From: an uncultured bacterium
Lineage (GTDB): Bacteria; Krumholzibacteriota; Krumholzibacteriia; LZORAL124-64-63
Assembly: GCA_963727525.1 (NCBI GenBank)
Contig: CAVSGO010000006.1
Coordinates: 96,001-160,000, forward strand
DNA length: 64,000 nt
Reading direction: 5' to 3'
The notes under the pieces were generated by a model, which was not told the DNA's origin, made no database searches, and saw nothing but the letters and a program-made list of their open reading frames with translations. Positions within the stretch are counted from its first letter, which is position 1. The number at the start of each line of letters is the position of its first letter. The translations under genes were made by a program, and so were the position numbers. Below are positions 1,721 through 31,722 of this stretch, piece by piece.

Positions 1721-1734
1721 CGGGAGACCGTGCC

Positions 1735-2310: not shown

Positions 2311-2325
2311 CCACGGAGACGCACC

Positions 2326-4416
2326 ATGTGGATCCCCGCTGTCGTCCTCGGAGGTATCGCCGCGATCGCGGCGGTGGTGCTGGGCATTGCGGCGCGCGTC
2401 TTCCACGTTCAGGAAGATCCGCGGATCAAGGCCGTCAATGACCTGCTCGCCGGCGCCAACTGCGGGGGCTGCGGCTACGCGGGCTGCGTCGCCTGTGCGG
2501 AGGCGATCGTCCGCGGCGAGGTGGAGCCCAACGCATGCGTGGTCGGTCAGGCCGATGTGGCGCGCGCCGTCGCCTCGTTTCTGGGCATGGAACTGGCCGA
2601 CACGGAGCCGCAGATCGCGTGCCCCGACTGCCAGGGAGGGTTGCGCGCCTCGCGCAAGTACGCCTACGCCGGCTTTGACGACTGCCGCGCTGCTATGCTC
2701 TATTTCCACGGCCCCGTGTCATGCCAGCACGGATGCCTCGGGCTGGGCACCTGCATCCGCGCCTGCAAGTTCGGGGCGATCACGATGGGGCCCGCCGGGT
2801 TGCCCCTCTTCGATCCTACGCGCTGCGTGGCCTGCGGCGCCTGCGCTCGCGCTTGCCCCAAGGGCATCATCTCGATCATTTCCGAGACGACCAAGATCCT
2901 GCACTGGAATCGCTACACCGAATGCCTGGCCCCGTGCCGGCAGAAGTGTCCGGCGCAGATCAACATCCCCAAGTACATCGAGCACCTGAAGCGCGGCGAG
3001 TTCGCCGAGGCGTTGCTGACGATCAAGGAGAGCAACCCGCTACCGCTCTCCACGGGCCGGGTATGCCCCGAGCCGTGTGCCCTGGCCTGCCGGCGACATA
3101 TCGGCGACGAACCGGTAGCGATCAACTATCTCAAGCGCTTCGCGGCCGACTGGGAAATGAGCTCGGGGCGCCGCCTGCACATCCCTGTGCTTCCGGATAC
3201 CGGCCGGAAGGTCGCGGTGATCGGAGGCGGGCCAGCCGGACTGTCCGCGGCCTACTTCCTGCGCCGCCTCGGCCACGCCGTCACCATCTATGATCAGATG
3301 CCGGCGCTCGGCGGCATGCTGCGCTACGGCATTCCGGAGTACCGTCTTCCCAAGCGTGTTCTCGACTGGGAGATCGAGGGCATCCTGGCACTCGGCATCC
3401 AGGCCGCGACCGGTGTCGCTCTGGGCAAGGACTTCACCATCGATTTCCTGCGCGCCAATGGTCACGACGCGATCTTCCTCGCCGTGGGTGCATGGCGCGA
3501 CAATGGCCTTGGCCTCGAGGACGACGGCGTCTCTGGTATCGTGAGCGGCATCGAGTTGCTGCGGCGCATGCAGACGTCCGCGCCGATCCCCTTACGTGGA
3601 CACGTGATCGTGATCGGCGGCGGCAACACCGCCATCGATGCCGCGCGCACCGCCCTGCGAGCCGGCGCGAGTCGGGTGAGCATCGTGTATCGCCGTTCGC
3701 GCGACGAGATGCCGGCGAATCCGGCCGAGATCGTGGCCGCTGACGAGGAGGGCGTGCGATACCGCTTCCTCAGCGCGCCCAACCGCATCGTATCCGACGC
3801 CGGCCACGTCACCGGGCTCGAGATTCTGCGCATGGAGCTGGGCGAACCCGATCCCAGCGGTCGGCGAAGGCCCGTGGCGATCGCGGGATCGGAAGAGACG
3901 ATCCCGTGCGACCTGATCATCGAGGCCGTGGGCCAGATGCCCGACATCGATTTCCTTGCGGTGCCGGGCATGCCGTCGTTGCCGACAACGCGCTGGAACA
4001 CGATCGACGCCAGCGAGGACACGCTACAGACCGATGTGCCCTACATCTTCACCGGTGGTGATTGCTTCACGGGACCCTCGCTCATGGTCAACGCGATCGG
4101 TGCTGGTCGGTATGCGGCACGATCGATCCACTATTACGTGACCGAGGGCAGGATTCCGCCAATCGAGCACCGACAGACCGAACTCATCAGCGACTCGCTC
4201 TACGAGTCCATCGCGGGTGTGGCACCCCGCCCTCGGGTGCACGAGCCCGTCGTGACGCTGCAGGACCGCCTCGGCACTTTCAATGAGGTCGAGGGCACGA
4301 TCGACGAAGAGGATGCCCTCTACGAGGCCGCGCGTTGCCTGCATTGCGGCACCTACTGCTATGACCACGATCTGGAGCAGGAACGTCTGCGGCAGGAGAC
4401 CGAGCAGCCGGCGTGA
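2326..4416 (+). CDS. rnfB: RnfB fused to a GltD/NfnL-like Fe-S flavoprotein
   Basis: TM anchor, GANCGGCGYAGC, ferredoxin Cys motifs (CLGLGTCIRAC, CVACGACARACP). Then APCRQKCPA, GRVCPEPC..ACRR, GGGPAG, GGGNTAID, YRRSR and EAARCLHC. Confidence 0.92.
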   Translation: MWIPAVVLGGIAAIAAVVLGIAARVFHVQEDPRIKAVNDLLAGANCGGCGYAGCVACAEAIVRGEVEPNACVVGQADVARAVASFLGMELADTEPQIACPDCQGGLRASRKYAYAGFDDCRAAMLYFHGPVSCQHGCLGLGTCIRACKFGAITMGPAGLPLFDPTRCVACGACARACPKGIISIISETTKILHWNRYTECLAPCRQKCPAQINIPKYIEHLKRGEFAEALLTIKESNPLPLSTGRVCPEPCALACRRHIGDEPVAINYLKRFAADWEMSSGRRLHIPVLPDTGRKVAVIGGGPAGLSAAYFLRRLGHAVTIYDQMPALGGMLRYGIPEYRLPKRVLDWEIEGILALGIQAATGVALGKDFTIDFLRANGHDAIFLAVGAWRDNGLGLEDDGVSGIVSGIELLRRMQTSAPIPLRGHVIVIGGGNTAIDAARTALRAGASRVSIVYRRSRDEMPANPAEIVAADEEGVRYRFLSAPNRIVSDAGHVTGLEILRMELGEPDPSGRRRPVAIAGSEETIPCDLIIEAVGQMPDIDFLAVPGMPSLPTTRWNTIDASEDTLQTDVPYIFTGGDCFTGPSLMVNAIGAGRYAARSIHYYVTEGRIPPIEHRQTELISDSLYESIAGVAPRPRVHEPVVTLQDRLGTFNEVEGTIDEEDALYEAARCLHCGTYCYDHDLEQERLRQETEQPA

Positions 4417-4854: not shown

Positions 4855-6524
4855 TGGACACGAAGCTGCCCGGAATCGTCGTGACCGGCGCCTCCGGCTT
4901 CATCGGTCGGCACTTCCTGGCCAGTGCGGCCGGACGCTACCGGCTGTTCTGTCTGGCGCGCCGCTCGCGCGAGGAGTCGCAGATTCCCGCCTACGAAAAC
5001 CTGCATTGGTCGCAGGTTGACGTTGCGCGCTGGGACGACCTACGCGAGGTCGTGCATTGCGTGAAGAGCCATGGAGGCGCGTCTGCCGTGCTTCATCTCG
5101 CCGGCTACTACGACTTCCACAACATGGAGCACCCCGAATACGAACGCACGAACGTGAAGGGGACCCGCAACGTTCTCAAACTGGCGCGTCAGCTCGGTGT
5201 CGGTCGCTTCATCTTCGCCAGCTCCCTGGCCGCGTGCCGGTTTCCGCCGGCGGGCCTGGCGATCACCGAGGATTCGCCGGCCGACGCCGGATTCGCCTAT
5301 GCCCGGAGCAAGCGCGACGCGGAGGAACTCATCTGCGCGCATACCCAATGGATCCCAGCGTCCATCGTGCGCCTCGCTGCGGTCTATAGCGACTGGTGCG
5401 AGTATCCACCGCTCTATGTCTTCCTGAAGACGTGGCTATCGGACGGCTGGAACGCCTGCATTCTCGGGGGGCGCGGCGAATCGGCGGTGCCGTACATTCA
5501 CGTCCAGGATCTGGTGAAGCTCTTTCATGTGATCCTCGAGCGCAGCGCTACGCTGCCGCGACTGGCCGTGTACAACGCCAGCCCGAATTCAGTGGCCAGC
5601 CATCGGGATCTGTTCCAGATGGCGACGCGTGCATACTACGGCACGGACATCCAGCCGCGATGCGTGCCGCGCGTACTGGCGGTACCGGGCGTGTTCCTGC
5701 GCTGGTGGCTCGGCAAGGCCCGAGGGGCGGCGCCGTTCGAGGCGCCCTGGATGATGCGGTATGTGGACGCGCAGCTCCGGGTCGATGCCAACCGCACCCA
5801 TGCGGCGCTCGATTGGCGCCCGGCGCCGCGCATGGACGTCGTACGACGGCTACTGGTGATGATCGAGAATATGAAGACGCACTCCGAAATATGGCATCAG
5901 CGCAATGAGGCGGCTCTACGGCGCGTGGCATACCGTCCCAATCTCGTCATCGCCCGGATCCTCGACGACCTGCGCGAGGAGTTGATCGCCCGGATCGCCG
6001 AACGGGTGAATTCACCGGATCTGGCCTCGCAATTCGCCGGATATCACGACATGGAGCGCGAGACGCTCCGCTGGTACCTCGCGTTGCTCTACCAGGTGCT
6101 CGTGGCGTCCGTGCGCACGCGCGACCGGCAGCTCATCCGGCACTACGCCCAGGTCATCGCCACGAGACGCCAGCAGGAGGGTTTCTCGTCCGACGAAGTG
6201 CGCGACTTCCTGATCCTGGTGGGCAAGATCGTGACTGAGACGTTGCGCACGCATGCCGAGCTTGTGGGGCACGAGCAGCCCATTCACGACAATGTCGGTC
6301 TGGCGTTCCAGCTCGCGGTCGACGGCATCGAGGACGTCTACGAAGCTCACGAGGCGCTCAATCCGGAATTGATTGCGCGGGGGCAGGGCTTCGCGGAACT
6401 GGGCTCGAACCGCGACCTCGAGCATATGGTTCACCAGCTCCGCGATCTCTGTGGCGATGTGTTCCCGACGCCCGGTGTCCACGCGAACACGGCCACGACG
6501 GATCGTCCCGTCATCGGACCATGA
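4854..6524 (+). CDS. Extended SDR (NAD-dependent epimerase/dehydratase) with a C-terminal helical RsbRD_N/globin-like domain
   Basis: TGASGFIG, HLAG, NVKGT, FASS and YARSK motifs. C-terminal ~170 aa helical region contains RQQEGFSSDEV. Confidence 0.85.
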   Translation: MDTKLPGIVVTGASGFIGRHFLASAAGRYRLFCLARRSREESQIPAYENLHWSQVDVARWDDLREVVHCVKSHGGASAVLHLAGYYDFHNMEHPEYERTNVKGTRNVLKLARQLGVGRFIFASSLAACRFPPAGLAITEDSPADAGFAYARSKRDAEELICAHTQWIPASIVRLAAVYSDWCEYPPLYVFLKTWLSDGWNACILGGRGESAVPYIHVQDLVKLFHVILERSATLPRLAVYNASPNSVASHRDLFQMATRAYYGTDIQPRCVPRVLAVPGVFLRWWLGKARGAAPFEAPWMMRYVDAQLRVDANRTHAALDWRPAPRMDVVRRLLVMIENMKTHSEIWHQRNEAALRRVAYRPNLVIARILDDLREELIARIAERVNSPDLASQFAGYHDMERETLRWYLALLYQVLVASVRTRDRQLIRHYAQVIATRRQQEGFSSDEVRDFLILVGKIVTETLRTHAELVGHEQPIHDNVGLAFQLAVDGIEDVYEAHEALNPELIARGQGFAELGSNRDLEHMVHQLRDLCGDVFPTPGVHANTATTDRPVIGP

Positions 6525-7983
6525 CCATCTTGCGCGTGAGCACGTGGCCCGCCTGCTCGAGGCGGTACACGTAGACCCCGGCCGGCATCGCGGCGCCTTG
6601 GTCGTCGGTGCCGGCCCACATCGTCACGTGGTGGCCGCCGTCGCGTTCGGCGTCGACGAGGGTCCGTATCCGTCGGCCGCGCTGGTCGAAGATGGCAAGT
6701 GTGACGTGATCTCCGCCGCGCCGCACGTCGTACCCGATCGTGGTCTGGGGATTGAAGGGGTTGGGAATGTTCTGCTCGAGGGCGATGGCGTTGGGCACGC
6801 TGTCGATGTTGACCGTGGTGCCCGTGATGCGGTAGACCGTATCGCCGCCGACGTCGACCACGTACAGTTCGCCGAGCCCATCCTGGCCGATCGACGCGAG
6901 CCCGCCGAAGCCGCCCGGCGGCGTGATCTGGTCGGTCCAGTCCGTGACCGGTCCGAATCCGCTCGCTGCCGACCACGCGCCACTCCAGATCTGACCGCTG
7001 CAGTAATCGGCGAAAAAATACTGGCCGGCAAGCGCCGGTAAGGCGTCGCCGCGATAGACGTAGCCGCCTGAGATGGAGCATCGAAACGGGGTGCCGCCGT
7101 GCGAGTACTCGTGGACCGGCAACACCAGGGTGCCGTCGTTGCAATCACTCGGCGGATCGTAGCAACTCGTGCCTTCCATCAGGTGCCAACCGTAGTTCTC
7201 ACCACCGCTCGAGCTGGCGGGTTGGACGTCGATTTCCTCCAGCTCACCCTGGCCCACGTCGGCGATGTAGAGATCTCCGGTCTGTCGATCGAAGGAGAAG
7301 CACCAGGGGTTGCGCAGGCCGTAGGCCCAGATCTCGTCACGCCCGGGCTGGCCCACCAGGGGATTCGAGGGCGGATTGGTGTAGCCGGGTGCCATGGCCA
7401 CGTTGATGCGCAGGATCTTGCCCAGCAACAGGTCGACATTCTGCGCCCTGTTCTGCGGGTCGCCGGCTGAGCCACCGTCGCCCAGGCCGATGTAGAGCAT
7501 GCCGTCCGGCCCGAACTGCAGGCACCCGCCGTTGTGGTTGCTGTACGGCTGTGTCACCGAGATCAGGTGCTCGGCGCTCGTGGGGTCGGCGACGTCGGGA
7601 TCGGCGCTGACATGGTAGCGTACGATCTGCGTGTCGCCGTTGACGTCGGTGTAGTCGACGTAGAAGCGACCCGAGATGTCATAGTCGGGCGCGAAGGCGA
7701 GCCCCAGGAGTCCACGTTCGCTCCCCGTGCCGACCAGATCGGAGATGTCGAGGAAGACATCGAGTCGGTTGCCGCCCTGGTCGTAGACCTCGATACGTCC
7801 ACCCTGCCGCACGACGAAGAGGCGAGGATCGCCATCCGGCGCGACGAGCCGCACGGGCTGAGCGATGTTCGTGATCACCGGTTCAACCGCAAGGACGGCC
7901 GCAGCCAACTGCGGGCGCATGGTTATCGCAACGAGGATGATAACGAGCGCGGCCAGTACGGGCCGCGAGAATGTGCGTAGCAT
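6511..7983 (-). CDS. PQQ-dependent glucose/sorbosone dehydrogenase (GSDH) family protein with FlgD-like CTD
   Basis: Signal peptide; ERGLLGLAF.PDY, NHNGG.L.FGPDG.LYIGLGDGG, GKILRI, YGLRNPW..SFD, GGENYGW; C-terminal QNIPNPFNP...RKMVMVR. Confidence 0.92.
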   Translation of the reverse strand: MLRTFSRPVLAALVIILVAITMRPQLAAAVLAVEPVITNIAQPVRLVAPDGDPRLFVVRQGGRIEVYDQGGNRLDVFLDISDLVGTGSERGLLGLAFAPDYDISGRFYVDYTDVNGDTQIVRYHVSADPDVADPTSAEHLISVTQPYSNHNGGCLQFGPDGMLYIGLGDGGSAGDPQNRAQNVDLLLGKILRINVAMAPGYTNPPSNPLVGQPGRDEIWAYGLRNPWCFSFDRQTGDLYIADVGQGELEEIDVQPASSSGGENYGWHLMEGTSCYDPPSDCNDGTLVLPVHEYSHGGTPFRCSISGGYVYRGDALPALAGQYFFADYCSGQIWSGAWSAASGFGPVTDWTDQITPPGGFGGLASIGQDGLGELYVVDVGGDTVYRITGTTVNIDSVPNAIALEQNIPNPFNPQTTIGYDVRRGGDHVTLAIFDQRGRRIRTLVDAERDGGHHVTMWAGTDDQGAAMPAGVYVYRLEQAGHVLTRKMVMVR

Positions 7984-8328
7984 GCCGTTCCTCCGGATTT
8001 CGGTCGAGATTCCGTCAATACGACGATCGTCAAGTCAGATATTTATACAGGATATTACTCGTCATGTATGGCGCCAGGCAAGTTTTTGACCGGTGGCGGG
8101 AAGATCTTGCCCGATCACGATCAGAACACGCCATTGCGACGTGCGACGCACGATCTCTCCCCGTCCTGGTCGGCACAATTCGAGGAGCGAGTAGAGCGCG
8201 AAACCTCTACCTGTATTACGAAACGGAAAAAGACGACTTTGGTCATGATAACTGATTGCAATATCGCTCGTTACAGCAATATTTTCTCAGTAATTTCTTC
8301 ATTTTCTTCTTTCTCCGAGCGATACTAT

Positions 8329-8344
8329 TGGTGTACGTTTTGCA
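8329..8344 (+). promoter_or_regulatory. Putative sigma-54 (-24/-12) promoter of the multiheme cluster
   Basis: TGGTGTACGTTTTGCA has GG-N10-GC spacing with TTGCA. It sits 50 bp before the ATG, downstream of an AT-rich tract (about 8200-8330). Confidence 0.5.
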
Positions 8345-8393
8345 ACACCTGTCAGCGTATCAACACCTTGATGACCCTGTTCAAGGAGACGGC

Positions 8394-9362
8394 ATGCGCA
8401 CGAACGGCGGATCACCAACCTTCCACGTGATGGCCTTGGCCACGTGCACGGTGCTCTGCCTGGGCCTGATCGCCCTCCTTCCCGGAGTGGCAACGGCCCA
8501 GGACGCGATGCGAACGACCGAGACCTGCCTCGGATGCCACGACGGTCAGGCCGCGAACCTGGTGGGGAGTCCTCACCAGATCACGGCACTGACGGACGCG
8601 GCCGGGGCACGCATTGCTTGCACCGACTGTCACAAGGGCCCTGCCAGCCACTGGGAGGACGACCCCGAATCGAATCCAATGGGCAATCCGGCCACGGTCT
8701 CGGCCGATGCGGCGGCGAAGCTTTGCGCCGGTTGCCACGTCAACCCTCACCAGCAATCGATGATGACCGGCGATCCGCACAACACCGCCGGCGTGTCCTG
8801 CACGAGCTGCCACCAGGTGCATGGTGGAGCGAACCGCGCCGATCTGCTGAAGCAGCCGGAGCCCGGTCTCTGCTACAGCTGCCATGGCGCCGTGCAGGGG
8901 CAATTCGCGCAGCCGTCGCGTCATCCCGTCGCCGATGGGGTCATGACGTGCAGCGACTGCCACCTCAAGTCTGCGGACGCGCGCGGTGCGCTCACATGGT
9001 CGGGCACCAACGCGATGTGCGTGAGCTGCCACGACCAGTTCCAGGGACCGTTTCCCTTCGAGCACCAGGCAACCATGGACTTCTCCACGGAAGAGGGCGG
9101 ATGTCTGAGCTGTCACGACCCGCACGGATCGGCCCTGCCGCGTCTGCTCAAGCAGCCGTACGAGTCGCCTCACTACAACCTCTGTACCCAGTGCCACGCG
9201 GTTCCCAAGCACAACTTCAATCAGGAGCACGGCACCGCCTGGGCGGGCGTGGCCTGCACAGAGTGTCACGTCGACGTTCACGGATCCTACGAGAACCGGC
9301 TGTTCCTGACGCCGGCTCTGCGGGCTCAGGGCTGTTCCGCCGTGGGCTGCCACCATTTCTAG
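8394..9362 (+). CDS. MtrA/DmsE-family decaheme c-type cytochrome
   Basis: AAGGAG RBS; signal peptide; 10 CxxCH plus a terminal CSAVGCH; family motifs CTSCHQVHG, F.QPSRHPV.DG.M.CSDCH, GPFPFEH, CLSCHDPHGS...LLK. Confidence 0.92.
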   Translation: MRTNGGSPTFHVMALATCTVLCLGLIALLPGVATAQDAMRTTETCLGCHDGQAANLVGSPHQITALTDAAGARIACTDCHKGPASHWEDDPESNPMGNPATVSADAAAKLCAGCHVNPHQQSMMTGDPHNTAGVSCTSCHQVHGGANRADLLKQPEPGLCYSCHGAVQGQFAQPSRHPVADGVMTCSDCHLKSADARGALTWSGTNAMCVSCHDQFQGPFPFEHQATMDFSTEEGGCLSCHDPHGSALPRLLKQPYESPHYNLCTQCHAVPKHNFNQEHGTAWAGVACTECHVDVHGSYENRLFLTPALRAQGCSAVGCHHF

Positions 9363-9374
9363 AAGGGGCGACCA

Positions 9375-10943
9375 ATGCGACGATCGACTGCGACGACAAC
9401 CTGTCTGGCTCTGTTGCTGGGCCTGTTGTACGCGGCGCCCGTCCACTGCGCGACGCTGAATGGAACGCTCACGCTCGGAAACATCAGTCTGGACGAGGAT
9501 GCCGGCGATCTGTCCGCGATGCAGGAGACGTACAACATCCACGACGGATTCTCCGTCTCGCAGATCCTGCTCAACGGCCAGCTCAGCGACCGGAACATGT
9601 TCCAGCTCGACCTGCGTGAGATCAACCTGGACAGCCGCAAGGGGCTCTTCACCTACCGGCTGGCCGACGTCGGCGACGTGACGGTGCGCTATGACCAGCA
9701 TCGGCAGCTCTTCGATGCCGATGGTGCCGTCAGTTCCGAGCGCAAGGATCTGCGCATCGGAGCCAGGGCGGCCATGACACCGTGGCTGCGCGTGTCGGGC
9801 AACTACAATCACCAGACGCGCGCGGGCGACCGACTGGGCTATCCAGCCGGCAACATCGGCTGGCTGGGCAACGGCTACGACTACACGCTGCAGACCGGCC
9901 GCGTGGAGGCCGAGGTGCATGACCACGTCCGCGGTCTGGCCGTGGGCTACGAGATGTCGGACTATGCCGACACTGAGCACAACGGTACCGACCGCCAGGG
10001 CCATGTGGTCTCGGTGCGTGGTCACATGCCCTGCCTGTTCTTGCCCGATCACGTGTCGCACTACGTGCGCGCGGCGTTCGGCCAGCAGGAACTGGTGGGC
10101 AGCGGCCTGCAGTACGACATGGCGTCATTCCAGTACGTGGGCGTGGTCAAGCCGGTGGATCAGTTCAAGTTCAAGTACGACCTGTACCTGAGCCGCGTGG
10201 ACGACGACGCCACCGATCTGAAGACGGACGACATCCGCAACAACTTCGACCTGACCTACTTCTTCAAGTACGGCCAGGTCTTCGGTGGTTATAGCTACGT
10301 GACTGCCGACGACGACCGCACCCTCACCAGCTCCAATGTCTGGCGTGTGGGAGCGGCGGGCGGCTATCACCATGCGATCCGCGCCAAGGTGAGCTACGCC
10401 ACGTCGGACAAGACCGACACCGAGCAGCTCACCTTGCTCAAGGACGTGGAGCAGGACCGTTTCCGGGCGAGCCTGCAGTCGCAACCGGTTGAGAATCTGA
10501 CGGTCGGCGCGTCCTATGCCGACCGCACGCGGGAGTTCCCTGTCATCAACGTGAAGGCCACCGGCAAGCAGGTGAGCACCTTCGCGCGGGTGACGGTGCC
10601 CGGCTGGGGCGGCTTCGGTGCCGACTACACCTATAGCCGTGACGAGTATGACGACCTGGTGGCGGGATACGACGCCGAGAGCAACGTCGTGACCGGCCGT
10701 GTCGACGTGGATTACATCAAGAATCTGCGTCTGTCCGCCGCCGTGTCCTATCTGGATATCGGAAAGGACCTCGATATCGAGAAGTCGATCCTCTCCTTCG
10801 AGGGGCGTTACAACCTGCTCGACGACTATCACATCGAGGTCAAGTACAACGTCTACAACTACGACGACTACATCCTGCTGGACCGCTACTACACGGCCAA
10901 CGTCGTGTGGGTGAACATCGGTTACGATTTCTCGGTGGAGTAG
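9375..10943 (+). CDS. Outer-membrane beta-barrel, MtrB/PioB-like porin partner
   Basis: Signal peptide, alternating amphipathic Tyr/Asp-rich strands, C-terminal VWVNIGYDF. Sits between two multiheme genes. Confidence 0.8.
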   Translation: MRRSTATTTCLALLLGLLYAAPVHCATLNGTLTLGNISLDEDAGDLSAMQETYNIHDGFSVSQILLNGQLSDRNMFQLDLREINLDSRKGLFTYRLADVGDVTVRYDQHRQLFDADGAVSSERKDLRIGARAAMTPWLRVSGNYNHQTRAGDRLGYPAGNIGWLGNGYDYTLQTGRVEAEVHDHVRGLAVGYEMSDYADTEHNGTDRQGHVVSVRGHMPCLFLPDHVSHYVRAAFGQQELVGSGLQYDMASFQYVGVVKPVDQFKFKYDLYLSRVDDDATDLKTDDIRNNFDLTYFFKYGQVFGGYSYVTADDDRTLTSSNVWRVGAAGGYHHAIRAKVSYATSDKTDTEQLTLLKDVEQDRFRASLQSQPVENLTVGASYADRTREFPVINVKATGKQVSTFARVTVPGWGGFGADYTYSRDEYDDLVAGYDAESNVVTGRVDVDYIKNLRLSAAVSYLDIGKDLDIEKSILSFEGRYNLLDDYHIEVKYNVYNYDDYILLDRYYTANVVWVNIGYDFSVE

Positions 10944-10980
10944 CATTCGCGTTCTCGAGTACGAGGCAAGGAGGAAGACA

Positions 10981-12006
10981 ATGTCCGCTCTCAGGAATCT
11001 CAGTCTAATCACGATCGTGCTACTGCTCCTGGTCGGTGTGACCGCATGCGACCGCACGATCACCCGTGTCGAGCAGGTGGCGGATCAGCCCAGCAGCTGC
11101 TTCAACTGCCATGGCGACGACAACACCGCGCTCATCTCGGCCCAGCTGGCATGGGAGAACTCGCGCCACGCGAGCGGCCTCAATACCAACCGGGCCACGG
11201 CCGACTGCTCCGGTTGCCATACCGGCGACGGCTTCATCGCGCGCGCCGAAGGGAACATCCCCGAGGCCTACGACAACCCGTCGGTCATCCATTGCTTCAC
11301 CTGCCACGCGCCGCACAGCAACGGCGACTTCGGTCTGCGCTGGACGGAAATGGCCACGCTCGAGGACGGCACCACGTTCGATCTCCACGCTGGCAACCTC
11401 TGCGTGGCTTGCCACCATGCGCGCGACGACGTCAACACCTTCGTGCGCACGGGCGGCGACGTGACGATCAGCAGCACCCACTGGGGTCCGCACCATGGCC
11501 CGCAGGGCGACATGCTGCTGGGCTCCAACGGCTACGAGTACGACAGCTACGGCTACGAGCAGACGCCATACCACCGCACCCTCACCCAGGACGGCTGCGT
11601 GGACTGCCACTTCAAGACCACGCGCAACTTCGTGGTGGGCGGCCACTCGTTCAACATGGAGGCCGATCTCGAGGGCTCCACGGTGCGCAACACCGCGGCC
11701 TGCGCGGCGTGCCACACCGGCCTCAGCGATTTCAACTACAACTCCGTGCAGGACAGCGTGGCCACCATGCTGACGACGCTGGAGACTTCGCTCGAGGATG
11801 CGGGCCTGTTCACCAGTGGCCACCCGGTCGCACAGACCGTGGCCGAGGCCGACGCGGGCGCCATGTGGAACTACCTGCTGGTCGAGGAAGACCGCAGCAT
11901 GGGCGTTCACAACTCGAAGTACATCATCGGACTTCTTGACTCTTCCATTCAATATTTGGCGGACAAGAAGTCGGTTGCACCGCTGGCTCTGGTTGACCAA
12001 GATTAG
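10981..12006 (+). CDS. Hexaheme c-type cytochrome lipoprotein, probably outer-surface
   Basis: GGAGG RBS; lipobox VTA-C; 6 CxxCH (CFNCH, CSGCH, CFTCH, CVACH, CVDCH, CAACH); NrfA-fold-like tail EEDRSMGVHNSKY. Confidence 0.9.
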   Translation: MSALRNLSLITIVLLLLVGVTACDRTITRVEQVADQPSSCFNCHGDDNTALISAQLAWENSRHASGLNTNRATADCSGCHTGDGFIARAEGNIPEAYDNPSVIHCFTCHAPHSNGDFGLRWTEMATLEDGTTFDLHAGNLCVACHHARDDVNTFVRTGGDVTISSTHWGPHHGPQGDMLLGSNGYEYDSYGYEQTPYHRTLTQDGCVDCHFKTTRNFVVGGHSFNMEADLEGSTVRNTAACAACHTGLSDFNYNSVQDSVATMLTTLETSLEDAGLFTSGHPVAQTVAEADAGAMWNYLLVEEDRSMGVHNSKYIIGLLDSSIQYLADKKSVAPLALVDQD

Positions 12007-12050
12007 ACCAGACCAGTAGGACTGCGCGAGCAGCATACTCGCTGAATCAC

Positions 12051-12082
12051 ACACGGGCGGGGACGGTCTCCGCCCGTGTTTT
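12051..12082 (+). terminator. Intra-cluster terminator-like hairpin
   Basis: acacgggcgg / ccgcccgtgt 10-bp stem followed by a short T run. Confidence 0.6.
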
Positions 12083-12097
12083 CTGAGAGGGATCACC

Positions 12098-14719
12098 GTG
12101 AACTTGAGAGCTTCACTGCGTGCGCTGGCCGTGTTTATTCTCGCCGCGACACTGTCCAGCATCACCTCTCTCTCCTCGGCGTACGCCGACAACGACACGT
12201 GCTTCATGTGCCACGACGATGCGTCGCTCAAGAGCGAGTCGGGCAAGTCCGTCGGCGTTCTGGCGAAGTTGTTCGATGCGAGTGTTCACGCCGGCCTGGA
12301 GTGCACCGACTGCCACACGCAGGACGCGAACTTCGATGACGTGCCGCATTTCTCGCGTTACCAGCCGGTCAATTGCGCGATGTGCCACGAGGACGCGGCG
12401 CACAGCTTCGGATTGAATTTTCACGCCAAGGCGGCTACCCAGGGCAACACCAATGCTCCGAACTGCAAGGACTGCCACGGCGTCGACGGCAATCCCCACG
12501 CGATGCGCGCCCTTACCGCGCGCACGGCGGAGTCGGCGTGCCGACGGTGCCACGCTTCGGAAGCCAAGATCTATGACACCGGTGTGCATGCGATCGCCGA
12601 CAAGGGTGGTCGCGAGAGGGCCGGATGCGTGACCTGCCACCAGTCGCACGGCCCGGGTCTGCCGCCCTCGTCCGGCGCCGTGAACGGCCTCTGCGAGAAG
12701 TGCCACAAGGGCGCCATGGAGGACGTCCAGCGCGGTGGCCACGTGGCCATTGGCGAGGGACTCAACCAGACGCTGAACTGCGCTTCGTGCCACGACGTGC
12801 ATGGCACGCACAAGCCGCACCTGTCCGCGCGCGTGGCCCAGGCGTGCGTCACCTGCCACCAGAAGGAACGCGATGCCTTCATAGGGTCGGTACACGAGAC
12901 GCTCATCGCCGGCGGCACGATGCATTGCCTTTCCTGTCACAGCACGCACAAGGACGAGGCGGCGGCGCGGCAGTACGACGCGGGCTGCGGCAGTTGCCAC
13001 GGCGACGTGGAAAAGATCTACCGCGGTAGCGTGCACCGTTTCGGCCGCTTGCGCGGCGATGACGGTGCCGCGACGTGTGCCAACTGTCACCACGGACACC
13101 ATATCCTCCCGGCGACCGATCCGGCGTCGCCGACGAATCGCTTGAACATTCCCAGCACCTGCGGCGAATGCCACACCGATGAGAGCATCGTCACCAAGGA
13201 CTTCGTGCGTCTGCCGATCACGCTGCCAAACTACATGAACTCGGTGCACGGCAAGGGGCTCGTGGCGGGCAAACCCACCGCGACCTGCACCGACTGCCAT
13301 GGCACGCACGACCTGCAGACCGCCCAGGATCCGAATTCGAAGATCAATCGGTTCCACATCGCGCAGACGTGCAGCAAGTGCCACGCGGATATCGCGGAGA
13401 AATACGAGAACTCGATCCACGGCAAGGCTGTGCAGGTGGGTATCGAGGATTCGCCGACCTGCATCGATTGCCACGACGAGCACCTGATCAAGGACGTCAA
13501 GGACCCCACCGCGCGGCAGAATCCAGAGAACATCGCGCGCGAGCTGTGCGGTGACTGCCACAACAACTCGGACATGGTGTCGAAGTACGGCATCGCCGCG
13601 GGCGTCGTGAGCAGCTATCTCGACAGCTACCACGGGTGGGCGATCAGCCGCGGGGGAACCCTCGTGGCCACCTGCGTCGATTGCCACACGACCCACGAGA
13701 TCCGGGCCCCGCAGGATCCCGAGTCGTCGGTCTTCGTGGACAACGTGACAAAAACGTGCGGCAAGTGCCACGCGAATGCCAACGAGACGTTTTCCCGCTC
13801 TTACACGCACGCGGGCGCGCTAGCGGCGCGCGGGCCGCACGGCTGGGCGAAGCTGATCTACCTCATCCTGATCGCCGTGGTGCTTGGCGGCATGGCGCTG
13901 CACAACTTCGTGATCGCGCGCTTCGAGATCATCAAGCACCGCGTGCGCCGGCGCCGGGAGGCGTACGTCGTGCGCTGGCAGCGCGTGGAGCGCGTGCAGC
14001 ACCTGATCCTGCTCACGTCGTTCTTCGGCCTGGCCATCACCGGCTTCGCGCTGCGCATGCACGACGCCTGGTGGGTCAAGGTGATCGGCCTCGGTGGCTC
14101 CGAGTCGGTGCGCGCCAACCTGCACCGCGCGCTGGCCGTGATCCTCACCGGAGCAGCGTTCTTCCACCTGTGGTGGATCATCGCCACCCGGCGCGGTCGT
14201 TACGCCGTCAAGGAGATGGCGCCCGGCGCGCACGACATCGTGCACTTCATCAAGAACATGGGCTTCCACCTGGGCTTCACGTCCGAGCGACCGAAGTTCC
14301 GACGGTTCGATTACACGCAGAAGGCGGAGTACTGGGCGGTCGTCTGGGGCACCATGGTCATGGCTCTCACCGGGCTCGTGCTGTGGTTCCCCGTGCTGGT
14401 GACCACCTGGACGCCCGCCTGGGTGGTGCGCGTGGCCGAGGTGGTGCACTACTACGAGGCCATCCTCGCGGTCTCGGCCATCATCATCTGGCACTTCTTC
14501 TACGTCATCTTCATGCCATCGGAGTACCCGGTGAGCACCGTGTGGCTCGACGGCCGCATGCCGGAGCACGACTGGAAGGAATTCCACGCGGCCGAGCACG
14601 AGACCGACGGCGACGCAGTGGTGCAGCAGCCCGGGCCCAGCACCGATCTGCCCGGCATCGCGGTGTTCGTGCCCAAGGCGTTGCGCAGCAAGCGTCCTCC
14701 CGACCCGAAACACGGGTGA
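12098..14719 (+). CDS. CbcL-like 19-heme cytochrome c fused to a membrane cytochrome b (FdnI/HydC-type)
   Basis: Signal peptide; 19 CxxCH counted; C-terminal TM domain with ERVQH, LAITG, LHR, FDYTQKAEYWA..WG...M.LTG, VHYYEAILA...IIIWHFF. Confidence 0.92.
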   Translation: MNLRASLRALAVFILAATLSSITSLSSAYADNDTCFMCHDDASLKSESGKSVGVLAKLFDASVHAGLECTDCHTQDANFDDVPHFSRYQPVNCAMCHEDAAHSFGLNFHAKAATQGNTNAPNCKDCHGVDGNPHAMRALTARTAESACRRCHASEAKIYDTGVHAIADKGGRERAGCVTCHQSHGPGLPPSSGAVNGLCEKCHKGAMEDVQRGGHVAIGEGLNQTLNCASCHDVHGTHKPHLSARVAQACVTCHQKERDAFIGSVHETLIAGGTMHCLSCHSTHKDEAAARQYDAGCGSCHGDVEKIYRGSVHRFGRLRGDDGAATCANCHHGHHILPATDPASPTNRLNIPSTCGECHTDESIVTKDFVRLPITLPNYMNSVHGKGLVAGKPTATCTDCHGTHDLQTAQDPNSKINRFHIAQTCSKCHADIAEKYENSIHGKAVQVGIEDSPTCIDCHDEHLIKDVKDPTARQNPENIARELCGDCHNNSDMVSKYGIAAGVVSSYLDSYHGWAISRGGTLVATCVDCHTTHEIRAPQDPESSVFVDNVTKTCGKCHANANETFSRSYTHAGALAARGPHGWAKLIYLILIAVVLGGMALHNFVIARFEIIKHRVRRRREAYVVRWQRVERVQHLILLTSFFGLAITGFALRMHDAWWVKVIGLGGSESVRANLHRALAVILTGAAFFHLWWIIATRRGRYAVKEMAPGAHDIVHFIKNMGFHLGFTSERPKFRRFDYTQKAEYWAVVWGTMVMALTGLVLWFPVLVTTWTPAWVVRVAEVVHYYEAILAVSAIIIWHFFYVIFMPSEYPVSTVWLDGRMPEHDWKEFHAAEHETDGDAVVQQPGPSTDLPGIAVFVPKALRSKRPPDPKHG

Positions 14720-14743
14720 ACGCCCGCTGATTAGTCGCATTCC

Positions 14744-14781
14744 TCAATGAGGCCCCGGAGATCCTTACCGGGGCCTCTTGA
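14744..14781. terminator. Hairpin ending the cytochrome cluster
   Basis: tcaa-t-gaggccccgg ... ccggggcctc-ttga inverted repeat, 25 bp after the stop. Confidence 0.6.
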
Positions 14782-14900
14782 TATTCCGTTGTCACAGCTG
14801 CTGCCCGGACTCGTAATCTGTGATACCCTGGAGAGCGCCGCGCCTATCGGGAGCGGCGACCTCGCCGGCCTGATGGTGGATCACCCCAATGAAAGGCCAC

Positions 14901-17543
14901 ATGATCATGTCTCGATATGGACCCCAGATTCGTTGGCGCCGCGTCGCCCCGCTGATCGCGGCGCTCCTATCCATCCTCGCCCTCCCCGCATCCGCCGACC
15001 CACCCCATGTGCCTCAGACCTCGCATCTCCTGCCCGGCGACGGCGGCTCCTTCCCCGCGCTCGCGGACCAGACGACGCCTTCCATTGCCGCGGGCAATGG
15101 GGGGTTTCTCGCCGTCTGGACCGATGAACGCTCCACCGTGCTCGCCGGCGGTGGCACAGGCAAGGACATCTACGCGGCCCGGCTCGCGGGCGACGGCAGC
15201 GTGATCGACACGATCCCCATCGTCGTCACGCGCGCCGCGGGCGACCAGTATGATCCCACGGCGGTCTGGAACGGCACCGACTGGCTCGTCATCTGGACCG
15301 GCACCGTGGTTGAAACGCCTTACCCGCGCCACAACACCGAGGGCGCCCGTGTCTCTGGCGACGGCGCGTTGCTCGACGCGCAACCCTTCGAGATCTGGGA
15401 ATTCGGCGACAGCGGCGAGCACGTGGTCGGCGCCGCGAGCGACGGTCAGAACTGGGCCGTCGTCATGACCGACATCTACGTCAATGGACTCTCCACGAAT
15501 ACGCGCCTCGTCGGCCGCAAGATCTCGTCCACGGGCGTCGTCACCGGCGCGCCGTACTACCTGTACTCGCCCGCCTGTTGCTCCTTCTTCTGGCGCACCG
15601 GCATGGCCTACGCGGGTGGTACGTACATGGTGGTGTTCGAGGGGTACGTCGATAGCTGGAACTACGGCATCTTCGGCCTGCGCCTGAGCCCCGGCCTCAC
15701 GACCCTAGACAGCTATCCCGTGGTGCTCACCGAGATCGCGATGCAGAGCGAAACCCGCTTCTACGCGAGCCCCACGATCACGTCCGACGGCTCCACCTTC
15801 TACGTGGCCTGGGACCTGTGGCACCGATTCGAGAACAGCCAGGTCTACGGAGCTCGGATCATGCCCGACGGCACATCGCTCGACGGGAACGGTGTACCCA
15901 TCTCGGGCGTGCTACCCGAAAACAGCGAGCTGCAGCCCACGGCCAACTGGGACGGCACCCACTGGGTGGTGGGCTGGCCGCAGGGCGCACAGCTCCAGCT
16001 CGCGCGGGTCAGCGGCGTGGGCATTGTCGTGGATCCCGGCGGCGTGGCGAGCGGGCTGCCCCTCGGGACGTCGTTCACCGGACCGGCCGCAGGGCTGCAG
16101 GTCGCCTACGCCGAGGCCCGCCATGCCGATACGCATCCGTTCGATGCCGTCACGGCGCACCTCGATCCGGACCTCGCTGTCGGTCCCGTGGACGTGGTGT
16201 CTCTCGGCGCGCCCATGCAGCTCGACGCCGCCATCGCCCACGGCACCCTGGGGGCGCTGATCGTGTCGGCGAGCCGGACGGCCGACGCCGCGCACATCGT
16301 CGCTCAGCTCGTCGACGACATGGGAGAGGCCATCGGCGCCTCGCCCCTGACGCTGGCAGCCGGCACGGTGGCGCATCCGGACGTGGCGTGGGACGGGACC
16401 CGGTATCTCGTGGCGTGGGACGACGGTGATTCCGTGATGGGGACCCGCATCAGCGCGACCGGGGATCTGCTCGACGCCACACCCGTCGCCCTCCTCGCAG
16501 GTATCGATCCGGCCATCTCCGGCCGCACGCAGGGCTTCCTCGTGGCTTCCACCGCGACGAGCGGCGCCCAGGCGGTGCGCGTGGATGGAGACGGCACCGT
16601 GGTCGACGCCACGCCGCTCATGCTCGGCGCGGGCCTCGCCAGCCACGCCGCCGCCGCCGCGCTGGACGACCTGTGGCTCACGGTGTGGGAGCAGGATGGT
16701 GCGCCCGATGGCGGCGACGTGATGCTCTCGGCCGTGAACGACGTCGGCGCGGTCGTGGGCCCGATCCCGGTGACGACGCTGGGCGACGGCCTCGCCACTC
16801 GCCATCCGGCCATTGCAGTCGGCGACTCCATCCTCGTGGCCTGGGAAGACGGCCGCAACGGCACGGCTGACATCTACGGCCGCCGCTATTCGTCCGGTCT
16901 GACGGTCGCCGACCCGGCCGGCGGCGTGGCCCTGGTGATGGCCGACGACGACCAGCTCAACCCCGCCGTCGCGTGGGACGGTGTGCGCTTCATCAGCGCC
17001 TTCGATGACACCCGCGACCGCACCACCAGCCTCGACCATGCCATCGCCGTCTATCGGAGCTGGGCCTCGGCCTATGGCCCGATCGCCGAGACCACGGGGC
17101 TCCCGCTGTTTTCCGGCGATACCTCAGCGGCGGGTGCCGCCGTGACCGGCGACGCCGGCAACCAGATCTACGTGGCCTCGGTCTTCCACCCCGAGCAGCC
17201 TTTTGCGGCCACCCGCCTCGAGGTGCGCTTCGCGGGCCGGCCGACCGCCGTGGACGCGGTGCCGTCGCTCACGCGGTTGCTGCCCGCCTACCCCAACCCG
17301 GCCAACCCGGCCACCAATATCCGTTTCACCCTTGCCCGGGCCGGCGACGCGGTGATCGACATCTTCGACACCCGGGGCCGCCACATCCGCAGCCTCCAGG
17401 GCACGGGCCTCACCACCGGCGCCCACGCAATGCTGTGGAACGGCACCGACGTTCGCGGCGAAGCGGCGCCGTCGGGCACGTACCTGTACCGCCTGCGCGC
17501 CGAAGGCATGCAGGCCACCGGCAAGCTCTCGCTGGTAAGATGA
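14901..17543 (+). CDS. Secreted beta-repeat protein with FlgD-like CTD
   Basis: Signal peptide; repeated P.[VI]AWDG..[WY]LV.W / ARv..dG..lD units; AYPNPANP...GKLSLVR. Start could be 14889, 14901 or 14907. Confidence 0.85.
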   Translation: MIMSRYGPQIRWRRVAPLIAALLSILALPASADPPHVPQTSHLLPGDGGSFPALADQTTPSIAAGNGGFLAVWTDERSTVLAGGGTGKDIYAARLAGDGSVIDTIPIVVTRAAGDQYDPTAVWNGTDWLVIWTGTVVETPYPRHNTEGARVSGDGALLDAQPFEIWEFGDSGEHVVGAASDGQNWAVVMTDIYVNGLSTNTRLVGRKISSTGVVTGAPYYLYSPACCSFFWRTGMAYAGGTYMVVFEGYVDSWNYGIFGLRLSPGLTTLDSYPVVLTEIAMQSETRFYASPTITSDGSTFYVAWDLWHRFENSQVYGARIMPDGTSLDGNGVPISGVLPENSELQPTANWDGTHWVVGWPQGAQLQLARVSGVGIVVDPGGVASGLPLGTSFTGPAAGLQVAYAEARHADTHPFDAVTAHLDPDLAVGPVDVVSLGAPMQLDAAIAHGTLGALIVSASRTADAAHIVAQLVDDMGEAIGASPLTLAAGTVAHPDVAWDGTRYLVAWDDGDSVMGTRISATGDLLDATPVALLAGIDPAISGRTQGFLVASTATSGAQAVRVDGDGTVVDATPLMLGAGLASHAAAAALDDLWLTVWEQDGAPDGGDVMLSAVNDVGAVVGPIPVTTLGDGLATRHPAIAVGDSILVAWEDGRNGTADIYGRRYSSGLTVADPAGGVALVMADDDQLNPAVAWDGVRFISAFDDTRDRTTSLDHAIAVYRSWASAYGPIAETTGLPLFSGDTSAAGAAVTGDAGNQIYVASVFHPEQPFAATRLEVRFAGRPTAVDAVPSLTRLLPAYPNPANPATNIRFTLARAGDAVIDIFDTRGRHIRSLQGTGLTTGAHAMLWNGTDVRGEAAPSGTYLYRLRAEGMQATGKLSLVR

Positions 17544-18107: not shown

Positions 18108-18328
18108 CGCTAACCTCCCCATGTATCTTATTGAACAGCCATGATCGCTTGCAGCCCCATCTGCACCCACGATCGGTCGGCACGAGCCAGGCAGGTGCGC
18201 GTGCTCGACCTGGCGCGGAATCACGACCGGATCCGTCAACGGCATTGTAATCATGACAGTCCCTGTCGTAAACTCGTGGTCCCAGAATGGGGGGGGCAAT
18301 CGCAACCCATTCACCGACTGGAGGCGCC

Positions 18329-19270
18329 ATGAAATCGTTGACCTATATCCTCATCGCTCTACTCGCCGTCGCTGCCCTGCCCGCCCTTGCCACCGGCGAC
18401 AACCACTGGCATGTCTCGACCTACCGGGCCGAGTACTTCGACGGCCACGATGCCGCCAACCAGGCCCTCTATTGCGGTGACGAGACGATCCCGGCCTGTA
18501 CGGCCCAGGACACCATCGGCGGAATCGGCAGGGACTGGCTGGATGACGTGGAATGGCGTTCCAGCGTCGCCGACCCCTCCCAGCCCGTGACCGTCCGTTT
18601 GACCGGATTGTTGAACTACGATCTTCCCGACCTGAACTGGGATTTCCTCAATCTCTACATCCAGAGGGGTACCACGCTGGAGTTGCTGAATAGCTGGACG
18701 GGCACCTACGCCAGCACCGTGTCTCTCGATTTCACCGCCACGCTCAACCCCGGCGAGTATACCGGCCCGGGGAATGACGAGGTGAGGCTGGTCTGGCGCG
18801 TCGTGGCTTCCGCCGATGGGTGGGACGACGAGGATTGCCTCAACCCCAGCCACGGAGCCTGCCAGATCGACGATCTCTACGTCTATTTCGATGGCGTCCG
18901 TGTCACGTACGACACCTTCGAACCGGGCAGCCCGGTCAGCTGGACCCCCGTCGGCGATGCGATCACGGCGGCGGACGATGTCCCCGGGATCGGGCAGGTC
19001 GCCGTGGCCGCCCACCCGAATCCCTTCAATCCGCGGACGACCATCGCCTTCGCTCTCCCGCAGGCCGCCGACGTGTCCCTGGCCTTGTTCGATCTGCAGG
19101 GGCGGCTGGTCAGGACTCTCGTGAACGCGACGACCTATCCCGCCGGCCGTCACCAGCAGGTGTGGGATGGGCGGGACGATCTCGGACAGACGGCGCCCTC
19201 GGGCGTCTATTTCTACCGGTTCACTGCGGGGCAGGAGAGTCGGACGGGGAAGTTGACCATGTTGAAGTGA
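18329..19270 (+). CDS. Secreted jelly-roll-like protein with FlgD-like CTD
   Basis: GGAGG RBS; signal peptide ending ALA; HPNPFNPRTTI...WDGRD...SGVYFYR...GKLTMLK. Confidence 0.88.
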   Translation: MKSLTYILIALLAVAALPALATGDNHWHVSTYRAEYFDGHDAANQALYCGDETIPACTAQDTIGGIGRDWLDDVEWRSSVADPSQPVTVRLTGLLNYDLPDLNWDFLNLYIQRGTTLELLNSWTGTYASTVSLDFTATLNPGEYTGPGNDEVRLVWRVVASADGWDDEDCLNPSHGACQIDDLYVYFDGVRVTYDTFEPGSPVSWTPVGDAITAADDVPGIGQVAVAAHPNPFNPRTTIAFALPQAADVSLALFDLQGRLVRTLVNATTYPAGRHQQVWDGRDDLGQTAPSGVYFYRFTAGQESRTGKLTMLK

Positions 19271-27003: not shown

Positions 27004-27235
27004 GCCGTCCCAGATACATGATAATCCCTATCTACTATTGTTGTTGATCCCGGGCCCCGGCCGTGGTACGGTTGCTTTCGTATCGAAAACATCCGCTTTT
27101 GCCGCGCCAGGAGCGCGGATCGAGCGCGACGGGCATACGACCCGTGATTCCGATACCGGGGGGGCAAGACCGGAGGTCGGGCACGCAGGTGCCGGAACCG
27201 GTCTGGCCAATCACCTTGACCCCGGGAGACGGACC

Positions 27236-31629: not shown

Positions 31630-31722
31630 CAGCCCACGTCGTTGGCAACAAAGCCGCTGGATGCCGCCGTAGGCAGCGCCCCGAGGCCAGGGAGTTAATT
31701 TGTGGCTTCGAAAGGAGACGCC

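Follow-up and report, generated by a model that had tools for sequence, protein, structure and literature searches.

Mtr-type conduits are the best-understood bacterial route for mineral and electrode respiration. Here, we analyze a 64,000-nucleotide stretch of DNA from an uncultured bacterium of the Krumholzibacteriota (GenBank assembly GCA_963727525.1, contig CAVSGO010000006.1, positions 96,001 to 160,000 of the forward strand), referred to as the window, in which four consecutive genes of the same strand, named A, B, C, and D, encode three multiheme c-type cytochromes and a predicted outer-membrane barrel. An earlier interpretation made from the letters alone, the sequence-only reading, had taken these genes as one self-contained locus for electron transfer between the quinone pool and the cell surface. 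We find that genes A, B, and C form a conserved three-gene unit that probably builds a compact Mtr-type conduit capped by C, with D as a separate, facultatively linked quinone module and outward electron flow as the likeliest direction.

Gene A (positions 8394-9362 of the window, + strand) encodes a 322-residue protein with a Sec signal peptide, ten CxxCH heme-binding motifs, and a C-terminal CSAVGCH, i.e., a CX4CH motif. The 522-residue product of gene B (9375-10943, +) carries a signal peptide and no CxxCH and is predicted to fold into a compact, 26-strand, MtrB-like outer-membrane β-barrel with short loops. Gene C (10981-12006, +) codes for a hexaheme lipoprotein of 341 residues, with six CxxCH motifs and a signal peptide that ends in the lipobox V-T-A-C (Cys23), and gene D (12098-14719, +) for an inner-membrane protein of the CbcL/MtrH/MtoC family, with 873 residues, 19 CxxCH motifs, and a signal peptide. 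The intergenic spacers measure 12 nt (A-B), 37 nt (B-C, containing AGGAGG), and 91 nt (C-D), and third-position GC content is high in all four genes (0.77-0.88). The motif counts of 10 (+1), 0, 6, and 19 on four same-strand genes, as well as the lipobox on the hexaheme protein, agree with what had been read from the sequence, and the heme-motif densities of genes A, C, and D are far beyond chance.

The three-gene unit emerges from a scan of loci encoding a relative of B, which, at one genome per species, comprised 54 loci. Their taxonomic labels are Krumholzibacteria, Eisenbacteria, Latescibacteria, Zixibacteria, Ignavibacteriales, and “FCB group” (Fibrobacteres-Chlorobi-Bacteroidetes), plus a few differently binned metagenome-assembled genomes (MAGs), in keeping with the FCB-group affinity proposed earlier. 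A homologue of A lies directly 5′ of B in 51 of these loci, the remaining three of which start inside B, and a homologue of C lies 3′ of B in 53, locus L028 being the only one to lack it. When all open reading frames (ORFs) were clustered, none of the other families occurred in more than 16 of the 54 loci; the larger clusters of neighbors were shadow ORFs on other frames or shared secretion-tail domains, and only families rechecked against Pfam were used. Thus, the near-universal adjacency of A, B, and C, with no other family nearly as frequent around them, defines a three-gene unit. In the source genome, each of the three is present in a single copy.

Gene A encodes an MtrA-type decaheme cytochrome, as first proposed. 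Its best match among PDB sequences is chain A of the solved Shewanella Mtr complex (6r2q; E 5.2e-24), with residues 40-299 of A aligned to 62-324 of 333, and the NCBIfam DmsE/MtrA decaheme profile TIGR03508 matches with 170.9 bits over 257 of its 258 positions. With ten CxxCH motifs, homology to the solved MtrA, and a gene adjoining that of an MtrB-type barrel, A resembles the MtrA family, although its TIGR03508 score lies under the curated cut-off of 192.2 bits. What sets it apart is a C-terminal extension of 23 residues past the alignment with 6r2q chain A, which holds the CX4CH motif. Among 44 complete A homologues from the related loci, 42 have ten CxxCH motifs and 40 the terminal CX4CH; one has a CxxCH in its place, and one, from locus L042, is broken. 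This conserved motif is a probable 11th heme site, as judged from its sequence conservation. In the solved Mtr complex, the ten-heme chain of MtrA spans 80 Å, the MtrA C-terminus points out of the cell, and MtrC is contacted there by heme A10 together with MtrA residues 284-306 (PMC7198977). Given this outward-facing C-terminus and the MtrC contact formed there, the 11th site of A would lie at the junction between the wire and its outer partner. Shi et al. 2014 described the Mtr cytochromes as being without any atypical heme motif (PMC4245776). As a side observation, A has only five CxxCH motifs in L042, where the best B segment covers residues 370-522, which suggests frameshifts or decay at that locus.

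Gene B had been described as a small porin. The protein is short (522 residues), yet it is predicted to form a full 26-strand barrel: its AlphaFold2 model, based on a 35-sequence alignment, has 26 strands and a predicted local distance difference test (pLDDT) score of 86.8. The top Foldseek match of the model is MtrB (6r2q_B; E 3.1e-17, TM-score 0.76), separated by nine orders of magnitude from the second match (2.1e-8). Similarly, VIA-align superimposed residues 25-519 of the model on MtrB 6r2q_B with a Z-score of 26.7 and a root-mean-square deviation of 3.1 Å over 484 aligned residues, as compared with a Z-score of 20.5 over 361 residues for the runners-up, which are 22-strand receptors. The expectation that this protein is a barrel is borne out at the level of the model, whose best match is MtrB. 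MtrB itself has 26 strands and extracellular loops of ~45 Å (PMC7198977). As modeled, B is an MtrB-type sheath of full width whose loops are trimmed, rather than a small porin, and the strand number and synteny suggest that it would enclose A.

Apart from the structural comparison, the kinship between B and MtrB is visible only as weak Pfam matches. B has no significant match in Pfam or NCBIfam, and the Pfam family MtrB_PioB (PF11854) is weakly matched by 11 of the 35 aligned relatives (E up to 1), with a best value of 3.1e-7. A B-family profile run against PDB sequences gave nothing meaningful, with a single match at E 0.9, and a profile search of 1.84 billion representatives found only 188 clusters. 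At least 214 relatives of ~520 residues exist. Matches of B to DUF7919 or UreE (E ~0.05-0.06) were dismissed as noise.

The third member of the unit, C, is conserved in the features that define it. The lipobox cysteine is kept in all 53 C homologues and is followed by a conserved x-R-x-[IV]-T-x-V-E; 49 of the 53 have six CxxCH motifs, and each CxxCH of C is invariant across 49 homologues. The homologues also share six invariant histidines outside the motifs (H63, H112, H171, H198, H222, and H310), enough for six bis-His hemes, so all six hemes of C are probably bis-His ligated, as far as sequence conservation can tell. The C family counts at least 1,330 sequence clusters, and among the best 120 listed, all source-given names read “hypothetical protein” except two, a “nitrate/TMAO reductase-like tetraheme cytochrome c subunit” and a “Zn-finger protein”. 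Two loci depart from the common size: L054 has a variant C homologue with 14 hemes and 690 residues (9348-11420), and in L008 the open frame of C runs to ~1090 residues (9530-12799).

With regard to fold, a profile of 49 C sequences matched, among PDB sequences, OcwA (6i5b; E 5.3e-14) and a Carboxydothermus ferrireducens cytochrome (6qvm; E 2.2e-12), as opposed to MtrC (6r2q_C), which gave just E 2.7e-3 over ~80 residues. The Pfam domain MtrC-MtrF_II-IV covers part of the protein with 39.6 bits (cut-off 30). The structural model of C has a pLDDT of 89.3, with residues 27-32 below 50; such a low value in the linker that follows the lipobox would be expected if it became ordered only within a complex. 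Foldseek placed the model closest to OcwA (1.2e-5), 6qvm (3.5e-4), and pentaheme nitrite reductases (5e-3). VIA-align gave nearly equal Z-scores to OcwA 6i5b (13.7 over 220 residues, 23% identity), 6qvm (13.7 over 236 residues, the two identities being 23-24%), and the nitrite reductase NrfA 6v0a (13.6 over 240 residues, nearly the full length of C), with unrelated folds beginning at Z ~5. There is no MtrC chain among the Foldseek or VIA-align matches listed. The predicted fold of C, in a protein-only model that contains no hemes, is thus that of NrfA/OcwA, not of MtrC. C had been called a non-MtrC surface cytochrome, of which the lipoprotein nature and an OcwA/NrfA-like rather than MtrC-like character stand, while the surface position is a placement by analogy; we regard C as the probable surface-exposed partner of A-B.

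The near-full-length alignment with pentaheme nitrite reductases also raises the question of whether C is an NrfA-like enzyme for a soluble substrate of the nitrite, hydroxylamine, or sulfite type, carried on a lipoprotein that faces the periplasm. A weak Pfam match to Cytochrom_C552 (E 0.0011) points the same way, and OcwA is reported to accept soluble and insoluble substrates alike (PMC6703420). However, C has no CxxCK motif, the signature of the NrfA-type catalytic heme, and its six invariant histidines leave no obvious open heme site. Its synteny with the MtrA/MtrB pair is near absolute (53/54), and its closest sequence matches are two cell-surface cytochromes of Gram-positive metal reducers. 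We consider an enzymatic, periplasm-facing C very improbable.

Gene D belongs to the CbcL/MtrH/MtoC family by its sequence. Members of this family combine an N-terminal multiheme c domain with a C-terminal HydC/FdnI-type cytochrome b and have been cataloged with 3-23 CX2CH motifs and 416-1034 residues in 15 phyla (PMC6295460). In D, the 19 CxxCH motifs lie at residues 35-558, and the Pfam domain Ni_hydr_CYTB at residues 626-805 (52.3 bits vs. a cut-off of 30.1), which substantiates the cytochrome b domain previously assigned to the last gene. Alignment to FdnI (1kqf_C; E 1.3e-4) pairs H784 and H799 of D with the two histidines of FdnI transmembrane (TM) helix 4, and six histidines (H602, H635, H676, H690, H784, and H799) are each at least 99% conserved in 102 homologues. 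D is, hence, CbcL-like in both parts, as proposed. A simple hydropathy scan finds five hydrophobic segments C-terminal to the c domain, and the membrane part is predicted to consist of one linker TM helix and a four-helix, FdnI/HydC-type dihaem cytochrome b. Most family members have six predicted TM helices, and some are listed with four or five (PMC6295460). The last heme motifs of D are spaced by 29, 42, and 28 residues, followed by ~29 residues to the first TM helix, compared with 28, 43, and 28, followed by 28, in Geobacter CbcL (Zhong & Shi, Table S2, PMC6295460). This CbcL-like terminal tetraheme spacing unit is present twice in D.

That CbcL homologues can carry far more than nine hemes is not new, given the published range of 3-23 motifs and the 19-heme members reported in 2018. 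Three such members are listed, two from Ignavibacteria and one from Gemmatimonadetes (PMC6295460). The D family has at least 933 matches; among the best 120, 81 have exactly 19 CxxCH motifs and 22 have 13. The source genome encodes a second 19-heme CbcL-type paralogue outside the window (G000:C6:329304-331919, -), with 31% identity to D and a heme spacing nearly identical to that of the Gemmatimonadetes entry of Table S2. The heme spacing of D itself differs from this cataloged 19-heme type.

The relation of D to the conduit is the part of the sequence-only reading that had to be revised. Counting a D-like gene as near the trio when both its domains are present within ~8 kb, we found one in only 7 of the 54 loci, varying in position and orientation, and none in the other 47. 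Co-conservation of all four genes, the absence of which had been named beforehand as grounds for giving up the idea, holds for A-B-C and fails for D. Since the four genes are not co-conserved, a self-contained, one-locus path is unsupported, as is the proposal that D is long enough to bridge the periplasm on its own; for scale, the ten hemes of MtrA extend over 80 Å (PMC7198977). In a sample of 151 genomes of the phylum, B was found in 41 and the D family in 94, the latter including 37 of the 41 B-positive genomes. In about 10 of these 41 genomes (our reading of the coordinates), B has a D-family match no more than 10 kb away, a lower bound given that 17 D-family matches are unlisted and many assemblies are fragmented.

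Several observations weigh against a compact Mtr-type conduit with a linked quinone module and outward flow. The score of A falls below the curated cut-off of TIGR03508 (170.9 vs. 192.2 bits). B itself has no Pfam MtrB_PioB (PF11854) hit, the full-length matches of its profile all measure 504-557 residues among those listed, and no canonical MtrB/PioB of at least 650 residues appears among the 150 listed of the 188 clusters. C is placed on the outer face only by synteny and analogy. The same hardware is used for electron uptake by MtoAB and PioAB. Other points concern a dedicated partnership between D and A-B-C. D-family matches occur in 57 of the 110 B-negative genomes, and the closest D orthologues (61-64% identity; genomes G089, G090, G097, and G130) are, among the matches listed, in genomes where B was not found. 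The 19-heme paralogue is surrounded by unrelated genes. Finally, an intrinsic-terminator-like or attenuator-like hairpin lies between C and D (12051-12083, +), with a 13-bp GC-rich stem followed by UUUUCU; the region 12004-12100 folds with a minimum free energy of -38.7 kcal/mol (z -2.83), and 0 of 200 shuffles were as stable. The hairpin is absent from the output of a consensus terminator scan.

The last four points, together with the 47 trio loci that have no D-like gene nearby, would also fit a D that is functionally unrelated to A-B-C, namely a general quinol:periplasmic-cytochrome oxidoreductase serving other reductases and adjacent here by accident. We regard this as unlikely, as the adjacency recurs in at least four arrangements and is hard to ascribe to chance. 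The order is A-B-C-D in the window and D-A-B-C in L007, where the D-like gene is 5′ and same-strand, and in genome G119. A 13-heme form lies ~4.4 kb 5′ and divergent in L043, L045, L046, and L050 and in five g32 genomes, and a convergent gene lies 3′ in L028, L041, and G035. In other lineages, the neighboring position is filled by an ImcH-like quinol dehydrogenase, a NapC/NirT-type hexaheme of ~510 residues found beside the trio in L002, L004, L014, L041, and L042 (fragments in L003 and L039), with a copy elsewhere in the source genome (C5:645228-646796). Lineages appear to differ in the quinol dehydrogenase that the conduit has recruited. Moreover, published mtrAB/mtoAB clusters also carry cbcL-type genes, with cbcL/mtrH/mtoC genes adjoining mtrAB/mtoAB in Rhodoferax, Dechloromonas, Gallionella, and seven more species (PMC6295460). 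We conclude that D is a quinol-linked module of general use, which has ended up next to the conduit on several occasions and, in this genome, probably serves it.

A c554-like tetraheme of ~200-270 residues adjoins the D-like gene in L043, L045, L046, L050, L014, L028, and L039 and is a candidate periplasmic partner; its homologue in the source genome (C5:719122-719691) has 42% identity. With such small multihemes encoded in the genome and the c554-like gene next to D-like genes, a soluble or intermediate carrier may serve between D and the conduit. Another family, without a Pfam match, recurs in D-linked loci (L007, L018, L028, L039, L043, L045, and L046).

The evidence can be rationalized into a working mechanism for the conduit and its facultative quinone module. 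By analogy with the solved Mtr complex, A would be threaded through barrel B with its N-terminus in the periplasm and the extra C-terminal heme at the exterior. C, located on the outer face, would pass electrons to or from extracellular substrates, for instance, Fe(III)/Mn(IV) minerals or humics, as synteny and analogy suggest. The dihaem cytochrome b of D would exchange electrons with the quinone pool, and its 19-heme periplasmic arm may carry them toward periplasmic or outer-membrane partners. Lying just 3′ of A-B-C in this genome, D probably feeds the trio, and it is probably transcribed, at least in part, on its own. In this scheme, D would be a general-purpose respiratory module with a facultative link to the conduit.

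A more ambitious reading joins these elements more tightly. A-B-C would represent a distinct, ancient branch of the Mtr systems, in which a loop-poor barrel exposes the CX4CH 11th heme of A, and this heme connects straight to an NrfA/OcwA-fold lipoprotein by way of the latter's invariant, lipidated N-terminal linker C-x-R-x-I-T-x-V-E, bridging the Gram-negative MtrAB wire and the Gram-positive surface reductases. In lineages of this kind, the 19-heme arm of D would make direct contact with the periplasmic end of A, and electrons would run from quinol to the surface along an unbroken, protein-bound chain of ~36 c-type hemes that needs no soluble shuttle. We offer this as speculation and think it quite improbable in its entirety.

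As for the direction of flow, outward transfer, i.e., extracellular reduction by a heterotroph, is the likeliest, and the organism probably exchanges electrons with minerals outside the cell. The large subunit of RuBisCO was not found in the genome (96.7% complete), in a search that did not extend to other CO2-fixation pathways; several heme-copper oxidase genes are present, and 24 ORFs have at least three CxxCH motifs, including one 42-heme ORF. Taken together with the secreted proteins of the window, these features fit a heterotroph able to use extracellular acceptors.

The reverse would be an uptake of electrons by A-B-C, the donor being Fe(II) outside the cell, minerals, or a partner cell, with D as an MtoC-like quinone reductase. 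The gene order of decaheme, barrel, further cytochrome, and CbcL-like protein resembles mtoA-mtoB-mtoD-mtoC, and no sequence feature separates quinol-oxidizing from quinone-reducing CbcL/MtoC homologues, according to the text of the family catalog (PMC6295460). The heme-copper oxidases could provide the electron sink for uptake, and MAGs of Krumholzibacteria and Eisenbacteria are reported to contain matches to Cyc2-type iron oxidases (PMC7914226, PMC9769843). In contrast, the missing RuBisCO large subunit, the one CO2-fixation marker searched for, speaks against reversed flow, as do the closest solved relatives of C, which are terminal reductases. The MtoAB of Fe(II) oxidizers is described as working without an MtrC-type surface cytochrome (PMC8805035), whereas, here, a surface-type lipoprotein cytochrome is strictly conserved. 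Inward flow is, in our judgment, unlikely, and extracellular reduction is retained as the likeliest direction.

Comparison with characterized systems shows which parts of the locus are familiar. Like Shewanella MtrCAB (6R2Q; Edwards et al. 2020, PMC7198977), it has an MtrA-type decaheme, an adjoining gene for a 26-strand barrel, and a gene for a multiheme lipoprotein. However, the order is A-B-C rather than the C-A-B of Shewanella; B has 522 residues vs. 649 in the solved MtrB chain, which implies much shorter loops; the B family is separate by sequence from canonical MtrB/PioB; and A has a conserved extra CX4CH on a C-terminal extension that distinguishes it from Shewanella MtrA. C differs most, with six hemes and a predicted NrfA/OcwA fold in place of the ten hemes and four domains of MtrC: it shares the lipoprotein signal peptide with the MtrC/OmcA family, but not that family's ten-heme layout of two pentaheme domains with flanking β-barrel domains.

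The best sequence-profile and structural matches of C, OcwA of Thermincola potens (6I5B; PMC6703420) and the undecaheme surface-layer cytochrome of Carboxydothermus ferrireducens (6QVM), are both cell-surface cytochromes of metal reducers. These proteins have nine and 11 hemes, respectively, come from Gram-positive bacteria, and align with C only in their C-terminal parts, whereas C is a six-heme lipoprotein of a diderm, encoded with an MtrAB pair. The Geobacter porin-cytochrome (Pcc) clusters (OmbB-OmaB-OmcB and ExtABCD; Shi et al. 2014, PMC4245776) likewise group a periplasmic multiheme, a barrel, and an outer-membrane lipoprotein cytochrome. The outer cytochromes of Pcc often have atypical heme motifs, its periplasmic component has eight hemes, and Pcc and Mtr evolved independently, according to the same authors (PMC4245776). 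Judged by the description of Pcc, A and B stand apart from it as Mtr-type by homology and predicted fold.

On the quinone side, the MtoAB-MtoD-MtoC and MtrAB-MtrH clusters also link an MtrAB-type pair to a CbcL-family cytochrome (PMC6295460). Those clusters are proteobacterial and have a nine- or ten-heme MtoC/MtrH, compared with the 19-heme partner and lineage-specific linkage found here, where the genome's other paralogue, and not D, matches the cataloged 19-heme spacing. CbcL (GSU0274) of Geobacter sulfurreducens shares with D a c domain followed by a cytochrome b, and, by the spacings of Table S2, the two proteins agree in how their last four hemes are spaced and how far these stand from the first TM helix; D, however, has 19 c-type hemes in 873 residues, as opposed to nine in 619.

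Thus, neither the MtrAB sheath and wire nor the CbcL-type quinol module is new, and their linkage has been described before. In the literature searched, we found no published description of the compact barrel family, of a conserved CX4CH 11th heme in its MtrA-type partner, or of an MtrAB pair combined with a hexaheme lipoprotein of NrfA/OcwA fold. A 2022 paper in Molecular Biology and Evolution on OcwA/NrfA evolution contains no hexaheme, lipoprotein, or MtrA in its text. A survey of mtrCAB that required mtrC (Baker et al. 2022) placed it in three phyla only (PMC8805035), and the reports on Krumholzibacteria and Eisenbacteria, as far as their available text goes, give only OmcS- or Cyc2-type hits (PMC7914226, PMC9769843).

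Although the compact A-B-C unit escapes the cut-offs of Pfam and NCBIfam, it is common among uncultured phyla of soil and sediment. If functional, it would extend metal or humic respiration, or electron uptake, to these lineages, connect Gram-positive with Gram-negative electroactive bacteria through their surface cytochromes, and offer a smaller Mtr scaffold for bioelectrochemical engineering. The 19-heme CbcL-type protein, in turn, bears on how electrons cross the periplasm.

The surroundings of A-B-C may hint at its history. GC content is 0.62 over the trio (window positions 8001-12000), most of the window lying at 0.65-0.72; the 410 bp 5′ of A are AT-rich, and B is patchy in the organism's own family, being found in 16 of 60 genomes. 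The lower GC, the AT-rich upstream region, and the patchy occurrence of B are compatible with a lateral acquisition of A-B-C.

A candidate σ54-type element, TGGTGTACGTTTTGCA, lies 50 nt 5′ of the start of gene A (8329-8344, +). It is the sole match to TGGYRYV-N4-TTGCW in the 64-kb window, where 0.24 matches are expected; one or more matches also arose in 22 of 100 shuffles. None of 43 related loci has the motif 5′ of A, and relaxed patterns show no enrichment there; with no counterpart in these relatives, this weak element is treated as unconfirmed and not built on. A consensus scan of positions 7900-15000 found no σ70-like promoter.

Elsewhere in the window and the genome, other features touch on redox metabolism. 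An Rnf set at 10-4416 comprises RnfD, an RnfG-like FMN_bind protein, and Rnf-Nqr membrane subunits and ends in a 696-residue fusion of Fe-S (RnfB-type) domains with a pyridine-nucleotide-disulphide oxidoreductase; directly 5′ of rnfC, just before the window, lies an ORF with eight CxxCH motifs (G000:C6:93382-94158; L057:7383-8159). Also outside the window, the 42-heme ORF mentioned above is a stop-to-stop frame at G000:C5:76615-79764 (-), and adjacent overlapping ORFs with 16 and 20 CxxCH motifs (G000:C5:348972-352258, -) may be a single 36-heme gene interrupted by a frameshift.

At least seven large secreted proteins with FlgD_ig/Por_Secre_tail-type C-termini are encoded in the window (6511-7983 (-), 14889-17543, 18287-19270, 21380-23419, 27038-29425, 31702-32490, and 36824-39598), one of which is a glucose/sorbosone dehydrogenase divergent from gene A; such tails may bear on the export of surface proteins in this lineage. 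Finally, two inverted copies of a 375-residue ORF with a weak HTH_38 match (32523-33650, + and 61735-62862, -), identical at 1107 of 1128 nt and ~28 kb apart, look like an insertion sequence-type element that is present twice.

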